Shown here piece after piece: positions 3,624 through 58,800 of a stretch of 64,000 nucleotides of DNA (the first letter of the stretch is position 1; each line of letters starts with the position of its first letter). Below the pieces are notes generated by a model. That model was not told the DNA's origin, did not search any database, and saw only the letters and a program-made list of their open reading frames with translations. This DNA comes from Candidatus Binatia bacterium (GTDB lineage: Bacteria; Desulfobacterota; Binatia; UBA9968; CAXXLF01). The position numbers and the translations under genes are program-made. The stretch lies in the NCBI GenBank assembly GCA_963664015.2, contig CAXXLF010000002.1, positions 1,440,001-1,504,000 on the forward strand. Reading direction: 5' to 3'.

Positions 3624-3965
3624 TTATCCCTGATTCCGAGCAACGATACCCCGTTTCCCCATTTCCCGATCCATATTCAAACTCCAACTGACCTTCTTGA
3701 ACTGAGCCCGGCTCATGAGCCGTCCAGCTCCATGGCAAGGTCTGGCGAAAACGGCCTTCATCGCTGCTCGGGTCCCCACCAGGAAATAAGAATAGCGACC
3801 CATGTCTCCGGGTACAAGTGCTGGCTGACTAATCTGCCGGTTAACCTTTGGAACCAACCGGTGACCAGGGGGGGAGGCTCCCGTCGCGCCTTTACTGTGG
3901 ACGCAAAGGCAACGGAGCTCCTCGTTCACCTCATGCTTCTCTAATTTGGCTATATTATGACTAAG
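3624..3965 (-). pseudogene. rtcB: internal fragment of RtcB-family RNA ligase
   Basis: SHNIAK...VHSKGAT...PALVPGDMGRYSY...CHGAGRLMSR match the RtcB HN, HRKGA, PGxMG and HGAGR motifs; N- and C-terminal parts absent. Confidence 0.8.
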
Positions 3966-4311
3966 GGACCAATCTGATGCAACCCCATCTGATCTGCCAT
4001 TGCTCGGTCTTCGTTTGTCATTTAAAGATACCTCGGGTGCAGCAGCCAGGGCCCTCTCCTTCGAATTCCACGCCCGGATCCCTGTGTGTCCAATTTTCCG
4101 ACTCATCATACATGTCCTGGTGGCGTCTTTGCTATGGCTAAAAATCTTTTCAGCTCAATGTCCGCTAACATTAGCTTTTCGAGGACTTGAAGAAGGAAAA
4201 CGAACTAATTTTTTTCAAATGCTTACAACAACCTCAAGGTAGAATCAATGGGAGAGGATCGTTAATGGTTATAACCTGGATTGGCCCGTGCCCGATTGTT
4301 GACGGTACTGA

Positions 4312-33826: not shown

Positions 33827-34135
33827 GCGCAAACCAGTAAGACAGTAGGCAGGGGGCAGCAAGACGCAAAGCGACAGAAGTCAGAGATCAGCGAGGCCAG
33901 AAATACAGCAAGGCAGCGCTAAGATTTCAGCTTTGACCGCAAAGCGCATGGAGCATAGCGCAAAGCGTTCCGGTCTTAGCTATCAGCACTCAGCTTTTAG
34001 TTCCGGACTAGCCCGCAATTAGTGTTCGGTTGATAGGATTCGAATTCGAATTTCTTGCTGTGTTCTGCATACTGCCTTTCTGCTCACTGTCTTTCCGACC
34101 TCTGACTCCTGATCTCTGGCCTCTGATCTCCGGCG
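33827..34135. repeat. intergenic mosaic repeat block R4
   Basis: Begins at the stop codon; AGTAAGACAGTAGGCAG, CAGAAGT/CAGAGAT, GCAAAGC/GCATAGC modules and a pyrimidine-rich counter-half. Confidence 0.85.
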
Positions 34136-48216: not shown

Positions 48217-49728
48217 CTACACCCCCATCGTACTCACCGGGGGTCTTCGGTGCTGGGTTGCCTGCTCGTAAGAGTAAGCCAACTTGATCATAGTTCCATC
48301 ATCGTAGGGCCTTCCGAGAAAGCATAAACCGGCAGGAAGGTGGTCCCGCGTGAATCCCGCTGGGACAACGATGGAGGGAACGAATACCACGAAGGTGTTT
48401 AGCTGGGCCACCCCCTTGGTATCCACGTAAGGCGGATTGATCCCCTCGCTAATCAGTGTGGGCTGATGCTCCACGGCCTTGTGTACGATGGCGTCCAGCC
48501 GATTATCCGCCATAACCTTTAATAAATCGGTCATCAATTCCTCTCGTACCTTCAGGTACTCGTAGTGCCTGGTCTCATTTGACGATGATGCCCACCTATC
48601 CCGTGAGCGTTTGTTCACCTGTTCGAACTTCGGGGACTGCATGACCTCATCCTGGGACTTGAATGGAGGATTCTTGCTCCTACCGAAGTACACCTCGAAG
48701 GACTCCCTCCCCCCACCAGGGCCTCCCGCCCGTTTTGTAAGCGCCTCTTTTATACTTGGAATGACGATGGGGTCAACGAGCTCGGCACCGGCGGCCTTCA
48801 GTTCGTCTAGCGCGTGATCGAAAACCTCCGTGATCTTTTTGAAGTCTTCCGAATCCGGCTCGGACCCGATCCCTATGGGTTCGCGCAAAACTCCGATACG
48901 GGCTCCCGACAAGCCGCTGTTATCGAGATATTCTGTGTAGCTCTCGGGGATATGCCCCACACCCCTTGCGGTTAACGGGTCTTCCGGATCGTAGCCCACC
49001 ATGACGTCCAATAGAGAGGCCAGGTCTCTGACCGTACGGGCCATGGGGCCGAGCGAACCGTTGATATCCGGCCAGCCCGCGTAGACACCGCCGCGGCTCA
49101 CCAAGCCGGCCGTAGGTCTCATCCCCACGATGGAGTTCCAGGTCGAGGGCCTGCGGATGGATGCCATACCCTCCTGTCCAACGGCTACCGTTGAAAAGTT
49201 CGCTGCAACACTCGCCGCGGAACCGCCGGAGGAACCTCCGACCGTTCGATCCAGTGCATAAGGGTTCCGGGTGGATCCGAAGAGGGACCCATGAGTGTCC
49301 CCACCACCCAATTCTCCCAGCGTGGCTTTTCCCAATAGTATCGCCCCGGCCCCTTTCAGCTTCTCCGCTACAAAAGAATCTCGATCCGGGTAGTAGTCCT
49401 CGAACAGGACCGAGCCCAGGGTCGTTGGCATGCCCTTGGCGTCGAACTGATCCTTGAGGATGACGGGTATCCCATGCAGCGAACCCACCAGACCCTTCGT
49501 CTTGAATGCGGCATCGAGCCGATCGGCCTCCTCAAGGGCCTTGGAGTTCAACGTGATAATCGCGTTAAGGGCGGGGCCCTTCTTGTTGTACTCCTCTATA
49601 CGATCCAGATACATCTGGACCAGTTGGCGCGCTGTGAGCCGCTCCGATTTATAGGCGCTATGGATATCCGCTATGGTCGCCTCAAGGATGCGAAAGGGTA
49701 CTATTGCTTTCCCAGCATTTACAGCCAT
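48217..49728 (-). CDS. amidase signature family enzyme
   Basis: LHGIPVILKD, GGSSGGSAA and SIRRP motifs. Confidence 0.9.
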   Translation of the reverse strand: MAVNAGKAIVPFRILEATIADIHSAYKSERLTARQLVQMYLDRIEEYNKKGPALNAIITLNSKALEEADRLDAAFKTKGLVGSLHGIPVILKDQFDAKGMPTTLGSVLFEDYYPDRDSFVAEKLKGAGAILLGKATLGELGGGDTHGSLFGSTRNPYALDRTVGGSSGGSAASVAANFSTVAVGQEGMASIRRPSTWNSIVGMRPTAGLVSRGGVYAGWPDINGSLGPMARTVRDLASLLDVMVGYDPEDPLTARGVGHIPESYTEYLDNSGLSGARIGVLREPIGIGSEPDSEDFKKITEVFDHALDELKAAGAELVDPIVIPSIKEALTKRAGGPGGGRESFEVYFGRSKNPPFKSQDEVMQSPKFEQVNKRSRDRWASSSNETRHYEYLKVREELMTDLLKVMADNRLDAIVHKAVEHQPTLISEGINPPYVDTKGVAQLNTFVVFVPSIVVPAGFTRDHLPAGLCFLGRPYDDGTMIKLAYSYEQATQHRRPPVSTMGV

Positions 49729-50199
49729 TGAACCCTCCTCATTTTTGTTGGCCAATTTCACGCCATCCATAGTTCAATCACCAACAAAAGTCCACCTCCC
49801 TTACCACCTTGGCATATTTCCTGCCTCTCATGTTCCAGATAGCGGAAGTAACGCCATTCATAGGGAGATTTGTTTATGGGACGTCAGAAAAATCTATCAG
49901 ACCAGGATCCGGCACGTACAAAAATGCCCGAGCAGACAAGGCTCGGCTAGAAGTGGGATTCGACAAAAGACCGCCTGGCAGCCGCCATTAGTGATTTAGA
50001 GGAAAAAGATACTTCAGAAATTCCCGAGGATTTACTAGCCCTCGAAAAACTTCTCTACGGCAACCGTAATAAGGAGGAGTAACCACGGGCATGGGGTGGT
50101 CTCAGATTGCGCCCAGCGTCTCGAGACATCACACTCCCGATCGTTAAAAAGTGGCCCGCCCTATTTTTTTGATTATCTGTAATCCTGAAGTGTATAGAC

Positions 50200-54916: not shown

Positions 54917-56025
54917 CTACGTCGGCTCTCCCTTTAGTGACGAGCTTCTTAAGCCCGCGCCCATCCCTGTATTGGGGTAGGCTGGCAACCAAATACCCCC
55001 CCCGGGGTTGGCGACAGGGCACTGATCGCTGATCATATCCTTGGGAATATCCATGCGCATGGAGTTGTGTTCCGAATTATTCTGCCATGCCAGTTGACCG
55101 TCTTTGGATATCATCCAGTTTGCGAAGACCTTCGCCGCGTTGGGATGGGGGCGCCGGTTCATCACCGCGACGTACTCCCCTCCCCCCCGGAGAGATGCCC
55201 CTCGGTCTTGGGTGCACGATAGACGTCAACGGGCAAACGCTGTTTTTTGGCAGTCTGAACCTCCGCGTTCCTGGCTCCAATGTATAGCTCATAGCTACCC
55301 TTGGCGATCCAGTCGATCATCAGCCTGATGTCTCTCCCAACAGTAACGTCCATCTCCCTGAACAATCGCTGGATGAATTCCGGGCCAAGGCTCTTGTTGT
55401 AGTAGATGCCCTTCCACGTCCCCAACTGGCCTCGGCTCATGGGATCAAAGACCACCATCTTACCGCGCCGCTTGGGATTGAGAAGGTCTTTGATGGTCTT
55501 AAGCTCACCGGGCTTGTGCCTCTTGGTGTTATAGAGTGCGATCGTGGAGGTAACGGTCCATTCCATATTAAACAGGGGGGGGGTTGGATCCGCGTACAGG
55601 TGTTTTTTACCGAACCAGACCGACTGGTCCCTGTTCTCCGGTAAGATCAACACCGGTGGAAACGGATCAAAGAAACCCTTCCCGGCCAGGATGCCACCCG
55701 TTCCGGAACCGTTAATAAAAATATCCGCGATGAATTTTCCCGCGCGGGGTTCGGCACCGAGCCGGTTGGCGTGTTGGCCCCCGGTACCCACGACAGAGAC
55801 CATCTTGATCTTGGGATACACGCGTTTAAATGATTCGATGGCGTTGATGTACTCGGTCCCCGGCGGTCCATAGACCTTGACGTTTTCCTCTTACCGTGCC
55901 GCGGCCAGGGTTTTTTCCCAGTCGGCCTTCCAGTCCGCTTGTACCGGCCTATTAAACGACAGCAACAAGGGACTTAAAAGAGTGCAGAATATGAGTTAAC
56001 ATTTCAGACGATTAAGCATTTTCAT
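54917..56025 (-). pseudogene. extracellular solute-binding protein pseudogene
   Basis: GGAGG+ATG, two in-frame TAA codons near the 5' end, frameshift near 55170; PHPNAAKVFANW motif; paralog of 63630. Confidence 0.8.
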
Positions 56026-56445
56026 TACCTCCTCAGATTACAGGATCATTATTGAGGACCGGCGTAGCCTATTGAGAATGAGGGACACTGTCAAATCCCA
56101 AAATACCGACCAGATTGGGGGTCAGGTCATGCAATACGACAATATAGAGATATCTCCCACCGCAACGGGGCCAGGCTGAGCTGACCCAATTGACGATTAT
56201 GCGAACTAGGTACTGATCTAGTACATCGGGTTGACATAACATCCCGTTATCGAATACTCTGCCCCCCATAAATAGAGGTCTGAAGCTGGTCGCCCTTTCT
56301 GGCTCTTAAAAGCAATGTTGGCAGGCGATGGTAGGGGGGAGTTCTTGAGTTCTCAGTAGGCGGCCCTTTAAAGCGAGTTTCTATCATTTCAAATCCGGAT
56401 GCATGAGTCCGCGAGGATGCACTGCAGACGCTGAGAGGGGGAATC

Positions 56446-57507
56446 ATGCTAAACATGATTGAACAGGTGAGTTCCGACACGCAGATGAAAGATTTCGAGG
56501 CTCACGTGACGGCGCTCGAGGCGGACTTGGAGTACTGGAGGGCGAAACGCTGCGAGCCGCATGTGCTGCACTTCGTGCGGCGCAACTTCTTACCGCTGCA
56601 CGCGCTGTTCGCGACGGCCGCGAGAATGGGGACCGATGGAGCGGGTAAGCCCATCTTCATCCGATCTGACGGGAAAACCGGCGAAGAGGAGCACAACCAT
56701 GAACACGACCACAAGCACGAGGAGCTCGAGGAGCGCATCCGAAGCCTAGAGGATCGGCTGGACGACTACGTGCGGGCTATCGCGCTCTCAGCCACGGACC
56801 CAGGCAAAGTGGACTTCGTGATCGACGACTCGCGCAAAGAGAGCGGGGCCTACGACCCCTTCTTCAAGCTCACCAAGCGCGCGCACGGGGGCTCCTTGGA
56901 GGAGCGGATTGCACAGCTCGACCGAGAGCTCAAGCAGAACATGCAGGTGCTGGAGACGTTCACCCGCTGCCTGATGGAGAACGGGCTGCTCACCGAGGAG
57001 ACGATAGCGAAGCGGCGCGCCCAGCAGGAGAACAACGGGGCCAAGAACGGCGCGAGGGTCGTGGCGCGGGCGTGGGTTGATCCGGATTTCAAAGAGAGGC
57101 TGATAGCTAACGGTCGGGAGGCGATGCGGGAGCTGGACATCCCGCCGGGCCTGCTGGCGAAGCTGGGGGTAGCGGAGAACACCGACTCGGTGCACAACGT
57201 GGTGGTGTGCACGCTCTGCTCCTGCTACCCGCGCGCCCTGGCCGGTGACCCGCCTTGGTGGTACCGGCACGACAGCTACAAGCAGCAGATCGTGCAGGAC
57301 CCGAGAGGATTGCTGGGGAAGATGTTCGGGCTAAAGGTTCCGGAGGAGGTGACGATCCAGGTGCACGACAGCACGGCGGATCTGCGTTGGATAGTTCTGC
57401 CGCAGCGTCCGGCCGGGACAGAGGGGTGGAGTGAGGAGGAACTGGCGGAGCTGGTAACCATTGAGAGTATGGTCGGGGTGAGTAAGCCGGTCATAAGACG
57501 TGAGTAA
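56446..57507 (+). CDS. Co-type nitrile hydratase alpha / thiocyanate hydrolase gamma-like subunit with long N-terminal extension
   Basis: GARVVARAWVDP.FK, HNVVVCTLCSCYP (57208-25), DST..R.IVLP.RP.GTEGWSEE motifs. Confidence 0.88.
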   Translation: MLNMIEQVSSDTQMKDFEAHVTALEADLEYWRAKRCEPHVLHFVRRNFLPLHALFATAARMGTDGAGKPIFIRSDGKTGEEEHNHEHDHKHEELEERIRSLEDRLDDYVRAIALSATDPGKVDFVIDDSRKESGAYDPFFKLTKRAHGGSLEERIAQLDRELKQNMQVLETFTRCLMENGLLTEETIAKRRAQQENNGAKNGARVVARAWVDPDFKERLIANGREAMRELDIPPGLLAKLGVAENTDSVHNVVVCTLCSCYPRALAGDPPWWYRHDSYKQQIVQDPRGLLGKMFGLKVPEEVTIQVHDSTADLRWIVLPQRPAGTEGWSEEELAELVTIESMVGVSKPVIRRE

Positions 57508-57829
57508 GCGAATGAGTAGCGAGCCCAAGAACACACCCTGGTCGGGGCCGGGCGCGAGGAAGGAGGGTCTGGAACACCGGTTCAAGGCGGGCGAGCGAGT
57601 GCGAGTGCGGATGAGCAGCACGGGGGCCAACCCGCGCACGCCCACATATTTACTTGGCAAGACGGGCATGATAGCGGAGCTCCACGGGGCGACGTACGCT
57701 CCGCACGATCACCGAGGGGTCTACCCCTACCTGTACACAGTGGCGTTCGACGTGAGCGAGATCAGCGGCAAGGCGTCGAAGGACAAGATCCTGGTGGACC
57801 TGACCGAGGAGTGGCTGGAGCCGGTGTAA
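57500..57829 (+). CDS. stand-alone NHase beta C-terminal SH3-like domain (thiocyanate hydrolase alpha-like)
   Basis: RFKAGERVRV, RTPTYLLGKTG.I, YLYTVAF and VDL.EEWLEP motifs. Confidence 0.85.
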   Translation: MSKRMSSEPKNTPWSGPGARKEGLEHRFKAGERVRVRMSSTGANPRTPTYLLGKTGMIAELHGATYAPHDHRGVYPYLYTVAFDVSEISGKASKDKILVDLTEEWLEPV

Positions 57830-57904
57830 GCCGCACTGCCTACCGCTTGTGAAGTGAAGGGGTCTGAAGGGGTCAAGTCTTTTGTTGACAAATAGGCTCA
57901 CGGA

Positions 57905-58160
57905 ATGAGCTGTCAGCTATCAGCTAAAAAGAAAGCAAAGAGCAGAGGGTTAAGAATACTTAACCGCAGATTTTCGCAGATTAACGCAGAAAAAGATTCA
58001 CCGCAGAGCCGTCCCTCGAGGCTGCTCGGGACCCTGAGCCTGTCGAAGGGCAGAGAGCGCAGAGAACTCATATTTTGTTTGTCGAGAGACGGCGACAAAC
58101 AAAAGCATCTCCATTGCGGACAATAGCCTGACTTAATACCCGAGAACTCTCAACTGAGCG
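57905..58160. repeat. intergenic mosaic repeat block R15
   Basis: ACCGCAGATTTTCGCAGATTAACGCAGA, embedded REP-like unit 58012-58050, perfect 12-bp hairpin 58073-58104; modules shared with 62550-62680. Confidence 0.85.
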
Positions 58161-58182
58161 TATCGATCACCCAGACCTGGCT

Positions 58183-58800
58183 CTAAAAGGGGCCCCATGC
58201 CCGCTGGACGGCGGGGCGCGCGGCGATGGCATCGTGCCAGCGCCTCAGGTTCGGCCAGTCGTCGAGACCGACGCCGTATGAATCGTGCAGGTGCACGTCG
58301 GGGTAGCAGGAGATATCAGCGACGGAATATTCGCCTGCTAGATACGCATTGCCGGCTAACCGCTTGTCGAGAATGCCGCACATGTCGCGATACTGATCTG
58401 CGTAATGTTTCTTGGCCGGTGGTACGTCTTCGCCGAAGCGGTTCATAAACAGGCCTAGTTGCTGAGCGTGGGAGGTGAAGGTCGCGGACCCGTAGAACAG
58501 CCATTGATCGACGATGACCCGCCGCACCAGATCTTTGGGGTAAAGTTCACTGCCCGATTTTTCCGCCAGGTATTTGAGGATGGCGCCGGATTCACAAAGC
58601 GTCACCCGCATTCCACCCGGACCGTTGTCGTCCACCAGCGCAGGAATTTTGTGGCCCGGACTGATTTTCATAAACTCCAGCGAAAACTGCTCGCGCTTGC
58701 GGATTTCCACTGGTTTGAGCCTGTGCTCGAGTCCGATTTCCTCGATCGCCTGGCGCGCCTTGTAACCGTTGTCAGTTTTCCATAAATAGAGATCAATCAT
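58183..58800 (-). CDS. glutathione S-transferase (YfcG/Nu-class-like)
   Basis: T.NGYK, KISP..KIPALVD, ESGAIL.YLA and YS.ADI motifs. Confidence 0.9.
   Translation of the reverse strand: MIDLYLWKTDNGYKARQAIEEIGLEHRLKPVEIRKREQFSLEFMKISPGHKIPALVDDNGPGGMRVTLCESGAILKYLAEKSGSELYPKDLVRRVIVDQWLFYGSATFTSHAQQLGLFMNRFGEDVPPAKKHYADQYRDMCGILDKRLAGNAYLAGEYSVADISCYPDVHLHDSYGVGLDDWPNLRRWHDAIAARPAVQRAWGPF

Follow-up and report, generated by a model that had tools for sequence, protein, structure and literature searches.

An extended nitrile hydratase alpha subunit with a beta C-domain-only partner in Candidatus Binatia, and the possible replacement of the beta N-domain by its extension

The window analysed here is a stretch of 64,000 nucleotides from a Candidatus Binatia genome (contig CAXXLF010000002.1, positions 1,440,001 to 1,504,000), which contains a cassette of two genes related to nitrile hydratase (NHase). 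The first gene encodes a 353-residue protein, in which a cobalt-type NHase alpha domain follows a long N-terminal extension, and the second encodes a short partner corresponding to the C-terminal domain of the NHase beta subunit. The pair belongs to a subfamily with a fixed two-gene architecture, and neither a beta N-domain nor an activator is encoded at the locus. Both the subfamily and this absence are firmly supported as far as the data extend. The pair may be a distinct and self-contained cobalt-type enzyme of the NHase family in which the non-homologous extension replaces the beta N-domain, a reading that is given a probability of about one half.

The Pfam family NHase_alpha (PF02979) covers residues 170 to 345 of the 353-residue protein with an E value of 4.1e-67 (225.6 bits against a cut-off of 27.2), and no other Pfam family scores above its curated cut-off. 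The closest natural solved relative is the alpha subunit of the Pseudonocardia thermophila cobalt NHase (3vyh_A, E 5.4e-55), to which query residues 157 to 346 align on chain residues 12 to 199. Since this alignment begins at query residue 157 and chain residue 12, approximately 145 to 155 residues are additional at the N-terminus; a first-pass annotation, made by a model from the DNA alone, had estimated about 140. The core is approximately 45–47% identical to cobalt-type NHase alpha in a structural alignment and has the same fold. The gamma subunit of thiocyanate hydrolase (SCNase) is more distant (E 2.2e-37; 132 bits, compared with 190 bits for the cobalt-type NHase). A Foldseek search of the PDB with the AlphaFold2 model of the entire protein gave 39 matches at E ≤ 0.001, all of them NHase alpha or SCNase gamma chains, with target-normalised template-modelling scores of 0.67–0.78 over about 175–214 columns, i.e., over the core alone. 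No beta chain occurs among the ranks shown (up to 50), and E is at least 0.75 from rank 40 on. Similarly, a search of the ESM Atlas with the whole protein returned only clusters labelled "NHase alpha", with lengths of 310–346 residues. The metal claw C255-T256-L257-C258-S259-C260 is intact in the window copy, as had been read from the sequence, and is invariant across the 111 aligned sequences of the family. Its threonine and Tyr261 presumably mark a cobalt-type site. The model TIGR03793 for NHLP-type precursors of ribosomally synthesised and post-translationally modified peptides also matches residues 276 to 334 (62 against a cut-off of 50.9). Such a match is expected, because NHLP leaders derive from the alpha fold, and a precursor of this type is excluded by the length of 353 residues, the complete and invariant claw, and the beta C-domain partner.

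The partner matches NHase_beta_C (PF02211) alone in Pfam (residues 20 to 108, E 7.3e-14), and its residues 23 to 109 align with residues 137 to 227 of the 229-residue beta chain 7qom_B (E 1.8e-11). The alpha subunit of SCNase was reached at E 0.42 only. The NCBIfam model of the NHase beta subunit, TIGR03888, is matched at profile positions 124 to 226 of 226 only, with a score of 48.1 against a cut-off of 152.2. The partner is thus limited to the SH3-like beta C-domain, as initially proposed. Two starts are available, of which the ATG is favoured, as close homologues have 105 residues. Residues N44-P-R46-T-P48 and D70-H71 of the partner are invariant, and R72 is nearly so. No longer relatives of the short partner turned up, an absence that is itself weak evidence.

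Relatives of the cassette were collected by a genome scan using one genome per species and two peptide patterns from the extension. The scan yielded 210 stretches; tblastn confirmed 100 of them, from which 80 loci were retained, all from metagenome-assembled genomes (MAGs). An intact extended alpha gene is directly followed by an open reading frame (ORF) for the beta C-domain only in 68 of the 80 loci; in seven, the alpha gene abuts or is cut off by the end of the contig, and the remaining five (L002, L020, L024, L043, and L048) are broken. A homologous partner ORF follows the alpha gene in 71/80 loci, and the NPRTP motif of the partner lies a median of 78 nucleotides past the alpha stop codon. 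The proposal of a real subfamily with a fixed architecture is borne out by these counts and by the grouping of the extended alpha cores in the tree discussed below. Among the broken loci, two keep the partner gene. The copies at L020:3237-3725 and L024:9980-10576 are deletion remnants with internal deletions, and in the latter the extension continues in frame into the partner's C-terminal half, so that a partner remnant is fused to the extension. The copies at L043:812-1885 and L048:1118-2190 contain an in-frame stop and a frameshift, respectively. A natural separation of the extension from the alpha domain was considered for these two and rejected, as both lesions lie inside the alpha N-terminal helix and are regarded as errors or pseudogenes. 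The decayed copies reflect loss of the gene in certain lineages or, alternatively, misassembly.

For the beta N-domain and the related activators (PF21006), a hidden Markov model (HMM) was built from ten sequences. It recovered 10/10 positive controls from canonical plasmid loci at E ≤ 4e-29 and was applied to the window and to loci L001 to L080 with up to 10 kb on either side of each locus (1,205,895 bases; 17,110 stop-to-stop frames). No such frame was found by this model in the window or the 80 loci, in agreement with the earlier statement that neither gene lies alongside the cassette. The best matches other than the controls are weak (E ≥ 0.0037) and fall within the alpha subunit's own N-terminal helix. 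Furthermore, inspection of the window and of the flanks of ten related loci revealed neither an activator gene nor one for a cobalt transporter. The canonical comparison loci of Rhodococcus, Azospirillum, Pantoea, and Rhizobium carry nthB, nthA, and a gene for an accessory protein, often together with cobalt transporters.

Elsewhere in the genome there might be genes for an ordinary beta N-domain subunit and/or an activator, whose products would join in trans, as in the three-subunit thiocyanate hydrolase and toyocamycin enzymes, with the extension being an add-on. NHases with three genes and a split beta subunit do exist (Burkholderia sp. PAMC 26561, Microvirga terrae, and the toyocamycin system), and the search extended to 10 kb on either side of the loci and across the window. 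In the known split forms, however, the three genes are adjacent, and no third gene lies within 10 kb in the 80 loci or in the window. Moreover, the cassette moves as two genes: within the window's clade no conserved neighbours were found, relatives at 87–90% identity have only the two cassette genes in common, with different flanks, and transposases adjoin. The modelled extension also covers the alpha N-terminal helices. These helices are part of the canonical alpha–beta interface. A subunit joining in trans is therefore considered unlikely.

The extension comprises two conserved blocks (residues 14–55 and 95–155) around a linker, which is 15–46 residues long in the 111 relatives and corresponds to reference residues 56–94. 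The weighted frequency of the top residue is 0.77 in block 1 and 0.73 in block 2, compared with 0.79 in the core, 0.59 in the linker, and 0.53 in the alpha N-terminal helices. The effective number of sequences in this alignment is 17.7, which is too few for covariation. At least 95% conservation is reached by 30 positions of the extension, including seven arginines, five glutamates, three aspartates, and three tyrosines. These positions include D16, H20, D27, E29, Y30, R32, K34, R35, E37, P38, and R45 in block 1, and R97, R99, E102, L105, Y108, V125, D128, R130, E132, G134, Y136, F140, G149, and R154 in block 2.

No relative of the extension was found outside its own family. The beta Pfam family gave no match at E ≤ 1 on alpha residues 1 to 155, and hhalign returned probabilities of 0.42% for the extension against canonical beta subunits and 0.28% against beta N-domains and activators. 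The sole hhalign alignment, of EYYR..RRG..T.YDLL with the beta pattern YYE.W...G.IT.EEL, corresponds to this probability of 0.28% and was treated as noise. A profile of the extension searched against PDB sequences gave as its best match a designed protein at E 0.072, hence no solved relative, and the ESM Atlas gave no usable match with the extension alone. Across Pfam, hhalign, the PDB profile, and the Foldseek ranks shown, there is consequently no likeness to the beta N-domain of NHase, to the beta-N-like subunit of SCNase, or to the activators. The first-pass annotation had also described three similar coiled-coil segments, and this part did not hold. Local alignment against 500 shuffles gave z 2.5 for segments 2 and 3 (9/500 shuffles as high), z 1.3 for segments 1 and 2 (50/500), and z 0.1 for segments 1 and 3 (209/500), so that an internal triplication of a coiled-coil unit is unsupported. 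In addition, the third segment, LEERIAQLDREL (residues 151–162), is an ordinary alpha N-terminal helix and lies outside the additional residues.

The AlphaFold2 model of the 353-residue protein, based on the alignment of 111 sequences, has a mean predicted local distance difference test score (pLDDT) of 84.2 and a predicted template-modelling score of 0.83. Three helices are predicted in the extension, at residues 17–45, 51–63, and 90–114, with block pLDDT values of 82–95 (83–95 for the two helices of block 1 and 87–94 for helix 90–114). Values below 50 are found at residues 1–10, 77–88 (the His-rich stretch), and 128–139. In a separate docking model, the extension (residues 1–147) was supplied as its own chain together with the alpha core (residues 148–353) and the partner, alongside three controls. 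Each of the three runs gave a docking score of 0.65, and none of the three controls exceeded 0.16. Among solved complexes, 116 of 157 attain the mark used for this score, compared with 2 of 215 mismatched pairs, a calibration that is only rough for a model with its own alignments and three chains. The runs have at least 74% of contacts in common, and the pLDDT of the partner is at least 58. For the extension chain, the result cannot reflect the memory of a known complex, because the extension has no solved relative.

In the docking model, the confident interface joins extension residues 14–32, 36–61, 69–72, and 94–118 with alpha residues 151–194, 224–239, 264, and 310–312. Within block 1, residues 14–32, 36, 40, 43, 48–49, 53–54, 57–58, and 61 take part. 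The lowest expected error is found for extension residues 94, 97–98, and 101–118 against the alpha helix 151–179. Alpha residue 264 lies four residues past C260 of the claw, and the partner contacts the extension through residues 78 and 102 only. The models support binding of the extension to the alpha core, and overall the extension appears as a conserved, packed, non-beta domain.

The distribution of arginines bears on what such a domain might contribute. Four canonical beta subunits have one invariant arginine in each half, R52 and R160 (L081 numbering). R46 of the partner, in the NPRTP motif, aligns with the C-domain arginine of the canonical GHTR and the split-beta GHYR motifs in 9/9 in-frame rows. 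Variants of betaArg56 in an iron-type NHase are reported to have lost activity in a 2020 review (PMC7193024). The N-domain arginine would have no counterpart here unless the extension provides one, which is the main inference of this analysis.

The HNHEHDHKH stretch reported for the window is present at residues 83–91, but a linker with at least four histidines occurs in only 22/111 relatives, and this stretch is not conserved. At least two histidines are found in the N-terminal tail of 88/111 sequences, and only 2/111 have at most one histidine in both tail and linker. H20 is kept in 110/111 and H147 in 100/111 sequences. Such recurring, shifting His-rich patches fit a movable metal antenna. 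One account would make metal delivery the chief role: the extension would be a built-in maturation device, analogous to the cobalt activator or self-subunit-swapping chaperone, in which the His patch delivers the metal and no lasting role at the active site remains. The lack of a nearby activator gene, the near universality of His-rich patches at shifting positions, and the conserved H20 and H147 speak for it. Activators, however, are beta-N-like (PF21006) and the extension is not; the His stretches are unconserved in sequence, and that of the window is modelled as disordered; and the strongly conserved helical blocks with their stable packing suggest a permanent structural role. By analogy, the reported dispensability of the His linker in a eukaryotic NHase, considered below, also argues against this account, which appears distinctly improbable.

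In the preferred reading, the replacement of the beta N-domain, the helical extension would fold back along the alpha N-terminal helices and against claw-adjacent segments. It would thereby take over the structural role of the beta N-domain in covering the alpha arm and closing the active-site face. The extension would probably also provide second-shell residues, with Arg 32, 35, 45, 97, 99, and 130 and Tyr 30, 108, and 136 as candidates. More speculatively, the variable His-rich tail and linker might act as a low-specificity metal-capturing antenna that aids cobalt loading without a separate activator. The reaction would most likely be the hydration of a nitrile to the amide. The replacement of the beta N-domain had already been proposed by the first-pass annotation, and the proposal stands in part: core-like constraint, many invariant arginines and tyrosines, and the modelled packing on the alpha core are consistent with it, whereas homology to the beta N-domain was not found. 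Neither of the two findings that the annotation had named as refuting was made: the extension matched no known beta N-domain fusion, and no beta N-domain gene occurred within 10 kb in the 80 loci. Its further suggestions, a built-in metallochaperone and a different substrate, are conjectural.

Several points weigh against a replacement. Without any likeness to the beta N-domain, it rests on position and absence and not on homology. In the model, the extension packs mainly as a helical bundle against the N-terminal helices of alpha, and the interface approaches the claw only at residues 264 and 310–312. Only two partner residues, 78 and 102, meet the extension. The conserved loop with R130, E132, and Y136 has a pLDDT below 50 and lies outside the confident interface, so that no contact of an arginine with the claw is predicted. 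As the extension and the core are one polypeptide, the docking result speaks for a packed domain rather than for a function. The missed NCBIfam equivalog cut-offs, given below, count on the same side, as does the 10-kb reach of the search for a beta N-domain gene. With regard to metal handling, the His stretch of the window is neither conserved among the 111 relatives nor ordered (pLDDT below 50), and metal insertion into the eukaryotic fused NHase is reported not to require its (His)17 linker (PMC7193024). Finally, the alpha subunit of at least one NHase is reported to be active and fully modified on its own (PMC11672702), which means that the beta N-domain need not be replaced at all.

The last point also favours a different account, in which the extension serves assembly or regulation, as a helical bundle for the stabilisation or oligomerisation of alpha, and makes no contribution to the active site. 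The enzyme would then consist of alpha and the beta C-domain, the function of the beta N-domain being dispensed with. Three long amphipathic helices, lowest-error contacts that run along the alpha helix 151–179, and the lack of a predicted contact between an arginine and the claw are in line with such a module. On the other hand, the invariant residues are mostly Arg, Glu, Asp, and Tyr and not the hydrophobic seam of a plain coiled coil, and the conservation equals that of the catalytic core. The claw-adjacent residues 264 and 310–312 are also in the interface, and the loss of the beta N-domain is confined to the clade that gained the extension. An assembly module is a possibility to be taken seriously, even if it is clearly less probable than the replacement.

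It is also conceivable that the pair is not a functional NHase, acting instead on another small substrate such as thiocyanate, cyanamide, or an isonitrile, or being a non-catalytic relative. The alpha protein stays below the NCBIfam equivalog cut-offs of both the NHase alpha model TIGR01323 (211.1 against 249.85) and the SCNase gamma model TIGR03887 (170.6 against 291.45), the beta N-domain as the usual half of the substrate pocket is missing, and no aldoxime dehydratase or adjoining amidase is present at the window cassette. Against this stand the claw and core, which are invariant across the family, and the nearest solved relatives, which by the bit scores given above are cobalt-type NHases and not thiocyanate hydrolase. 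In addition, an asparaginase-type amide hydrolase is encoded directly upstream in 36/80 loci, which fits a route from nitrile through amide to acid. There seems to be little chance that the pair has such another role.

This asparaginase-like gene, for a protein of 571 residues, lies on the same strand as the cassette (L014 and the range L038 to L078, e.g., L050:8228-9943(+)), and its carriers include a sister clade of 33 rows and the separate pair L014/L077. The distance to the cassette ranges from a 120-bp overlap to a 181-bp gap, two broken genes excepted. The product matches Pfam PF00710, TIGR00520 (4e-13), and L-asparaginases in the PDB (1e-10 over residues 238–393). In 32 loci, it is preceded by a gene for a 196-residue protein similar to thiol dioxygenases (8vni_A, E 1.4e-10), e.g., L044:426-1016(+). 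For the sister clade, this arrangement suggests a nitrile-to-amide-to-acid route with an asparagine-like product, and it would point to an amino-acid-like nitrile such as 3-cyanoalanine as the substrate there. A route from 3-cyanoalanine through asparagine to aspartate is described for NIT4 nitrilases (PMC8567248). The sister-clade loci also have RapZ, HPr, MetK, and AhcY in common synteny, and the neighbourhood may therefore largely be lineage inheritance. The window copy has neither an asparaginase-like nor a thiol-dioxygenase-like neighbour. The occurrence of a thiol dioxygenase beside an enzyme that needs an active-site cysteine-sulfinate is curious; a role in small-molecule metabolism is equally possible. 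A short MetE-like gene lies downstream of the cassette in 20 loci, including L003.

Among industrial catalysts NHases hold a major place, but how they mature, through an activator, subunit swapping, and cysteine oxidation, is incompletely understood. A natural family without the beta N-domain and the activator that retains an invariant claw would reveal what is indispensable in the classical enzyme, and a simpler two-gene catalyst with a different pocket might become available. It would also raise the question of which nitriles are metabolised by soil Binatia, Alphaproteobacteria, and Chloroflexota. A bolder version would be a convergent replacement of the beta N-domain in which the extension supplies the second catalytic arginine and the pocket wall, and carries a movable His antenna, resulting in an activator-independent cobalt enzyme for 3-cyanoalanine-like nitriles in uncultured soil bacteria. 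This version is regarded as doubtful.

Comparison with known systems places the pair closest to the cobalt-type NHase (alpha2beta2; Pseudonocardia thermophila, 1IRE/3VYH), with which it has the alpha fold and the CTLCSC claw in common, and whose beta C-domain and arginine are retained in the partner. It differs in the approximately 150 extra alpha residues, a partner without the whole beta N-domain, the lack of a nearby activator gene, and the missed equivalog cut-offs. In split-beta systems, namely thiocyanate hydrolase (2DD4), the toyocamycin NHase, and two plasmid loci, the beta C-domain is likewise a separate small protein beside alpha. The two plasmids, of Burkholderia sp. PAMC 26561 (L083:2466-3922) and Microvirga terrae (L084:2551-3902), carry genes for the beta C-domain, nthA, the beta N-domain, and a HoxN cobalt transporter, and the toyocamycin system is described as consisting of alpha, gamma (PF02211), and beta (PF21006) subunits (bioRxiv 10.64898/2026.04.15.718813). 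These systems thus retain a separate beta N-domain beside alpha, whereas here none is found within the searched range and the alpha subunit bears a non-homologous extension. For thiocyanate hydrolase in particular, the TIGR03887 cut-off is not reached and no beta-N-like gene is present at the locus. The alpha subunits of the split-beta systems also group with the canonical ones in the tree, apart from the extended family. In the two plasmid records, both beta halves are labelled "SH3-like domain-containing protein", although one of them is a beta N-domain (PF21006).

The eukaryotic fused NHase of the Monosiga brevicollis type likewise has an N-terminal addition on alpha, a His-rich linker, and no known activator (PMC7193024). 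Its N-terminal part is a complete beta subunit, whereas neither Pfam nor hhalign, the PDB profile, or Foldseek relates the extension described here to beta, and a separate beta C-domain protein remains. With the activators or self-subunit-swapping chaperones of cobalt NHases (annotated as "nitrile hydratase accessory protein"), the extension might have a role in cobalt acquisition in common. These activators are small beta-N-like proteins (PF21006 on 3/3 tested), whereas the extension lacks such likeness, is fused, and packs strongly on alpha in the models. The "solo-subunit NHase" THI201 mentioned in PMC7193024 was considered as a relative and rejected, as it is related to a copper thiocyanate desulfurase instead (PMC8061750).

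A word-indexed protein search with the alpha protein gave 7,999 matches among 8,000 scored candidates, the best 120 of which have 312–387 residues and 93–100% query coverage. By phylum label, the 80 loci comprise 22 Binatota, 19 Pseudomonadota, 8 Thermodesulfobacteriota, 7 Myxococcota, 5 Chloroflexota, and 3 Verrucomicrobiota, with one locus in each of three further phyla and 13 unlabelled. The closest relatives of the window copy are the Candidatus Binatia genomes of L001 (90% identity over the extension) and L003 (83%). No tblastn match to the extension was obtained in plasmids of cultured bacteria. A profile search with the extension in 1.84 billion representative proteins gave 109 matches at E ≤ 0.001, and the claw is present in seven of them. 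The claw-less matches among the first 45 rows inspected appear to be fragments or broken ORFs; no beta N-domain or activator was seen in these rows, the short matches being without a family scan. One protein of 4,853 residues was matched in 48 stretches, which is read as coiled-coil noise.

A maximum-likelihood tree was built from 79 alpha cores. In it, a branch with support of 100/99 separates the 73 extended sequences, without exception, from four canonical and two split-beta alpha subunits. With only six outside sequences, the tree is consistent with a single origin of the extended alpha subunits and does not prove it. The best reading of these sequences is a distinct, monophyletic NHase subfamily, whose design appears to be widespread in uncultured bacteria. 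The window copy groups with L001 and L003 on a long branch inside a clade labelled Alphaproteobacteria and Chloroflexota, apart from most other Binatia rows. Genes for DDE transposases flank the cassette in both of its nearest relatives from Binatia (L001:8665-9660(+) and L003:6721-8184(-)). Together, the long branch and the flanking transposases suggest horizontal acquisition of the two-gene cassette. Two of the loci, L002 and L077, are in the same MAG (isolate B24D1T2), with one copy near the window type and the other from the group with the asparaginase-like neighbour, which hints at two functions or at mixed binning.

The subfamily had been called possibly undescribed by the first-pass annotation, which is accurate only with regard to its study. 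The family is catalogued already: a precomputed Pfam label, PF27793.1, stands beside PF02979 on 118 of the 120 best-listed relatives, and for some of these 120 NCBI or JGI uses the name "nitrile hydratase subunit alpha". The ESM Atlas, with its Pfam 38.1 labels, does not include PF27793. Studies of function or structure were not found, and no description of an extended alpha with a beta C-domain-only partner was found in Creative Commons-licensed PubMed Central papers and bioRxiv full text. The six NHase gene organisations listed in the 2020 review (PMC7193024) do not include this one. All carriers found are uncultured, which may explain the lack of papers.

The features of the cassette are collected in Table 1. 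No RNA family, riboswitches included, matched positions 55700–58300 of the window at E ≤ 1, and promoter-like and terminator-like sites around the cassette were no better than chance.

Table 1. Coordinates of the two-gene cassette, its parts, and the amidase gene in the 64-kb window.
Feature	Position in window	Strand	Description
Extended alpha gene	56446..57507	+	ORF, 353 aa; N-terminal extension and cobalt-type NHase alpha core
Extension block 1 (residues 14–63)	56485..56634	+	Helices 17–45 and 51–63; conserved, in modelled interface with alpha core
Variable linker (residues 64–89)	56635..56712	+	Most of His-rich HNHEHDHKH; low conservation, low pLDDT
His-rich stretch HNHEHDHKH (residues 83–91)	56692..56718	+	His-rich stretch
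Extension block 2 (residues 90–155)	56713..56910	+	Helix 90–114 and conserved loop
NHase alpha core (residues 156–353)	56911..57504	+	PDB matches, Foldseek, claw C255-T-L-C258-S-C260
Metal claw CTLCSC (residues 255–260)	57208..57225	+	Within VVCTLCSCYPR, residues 253–263
Short partner gene	57500..57829	+	SH3-like C-terminal domain of beta alone; GTG 57500 gives 109 aa, ATG 57512 gives 105 aa
Amidase gene	48217..49770	-	6.7 kb upstream of cassette

The alpha and partner ORFs are co-directional and lie within a catabolic region at positions 34000–62300. This region encodes a molybdoenzyme of the xanthine dehydrogenase family, an alpha/beta-hydrolase, the amidase, which is not adjacent to the cassette, as stated at the outset by the earlier annotation, a LigB-like dioxygenase, a Rieske LigXa-like oxygenase, a cupin, two glutathione S-transferases, and five Amidohydro_2 proteins. 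Just upstream of the cassette, at 54917-55821 (-), two ORFs of 219 and 82 residues in different frames resemble one solute-binding protein; an SBP_bac_1 protein in L003 is 39% identical, and SBP_bac_8 is matched weakly. They probably derive from a transporter gene that has decayed or undergone a frameshift. The rest of the window, its left half, is of a housekeeping nature (Mfd, UvrA, IscS/NifS, AddAB, and PepN). It also contains an ORF of 161 residues at 3627-4109 (-), which matches only the C-terminal stretch of the RNA ligase RtcB (Pfam positions 273–381 of 426) and is a fragment or remnant of such a gene.

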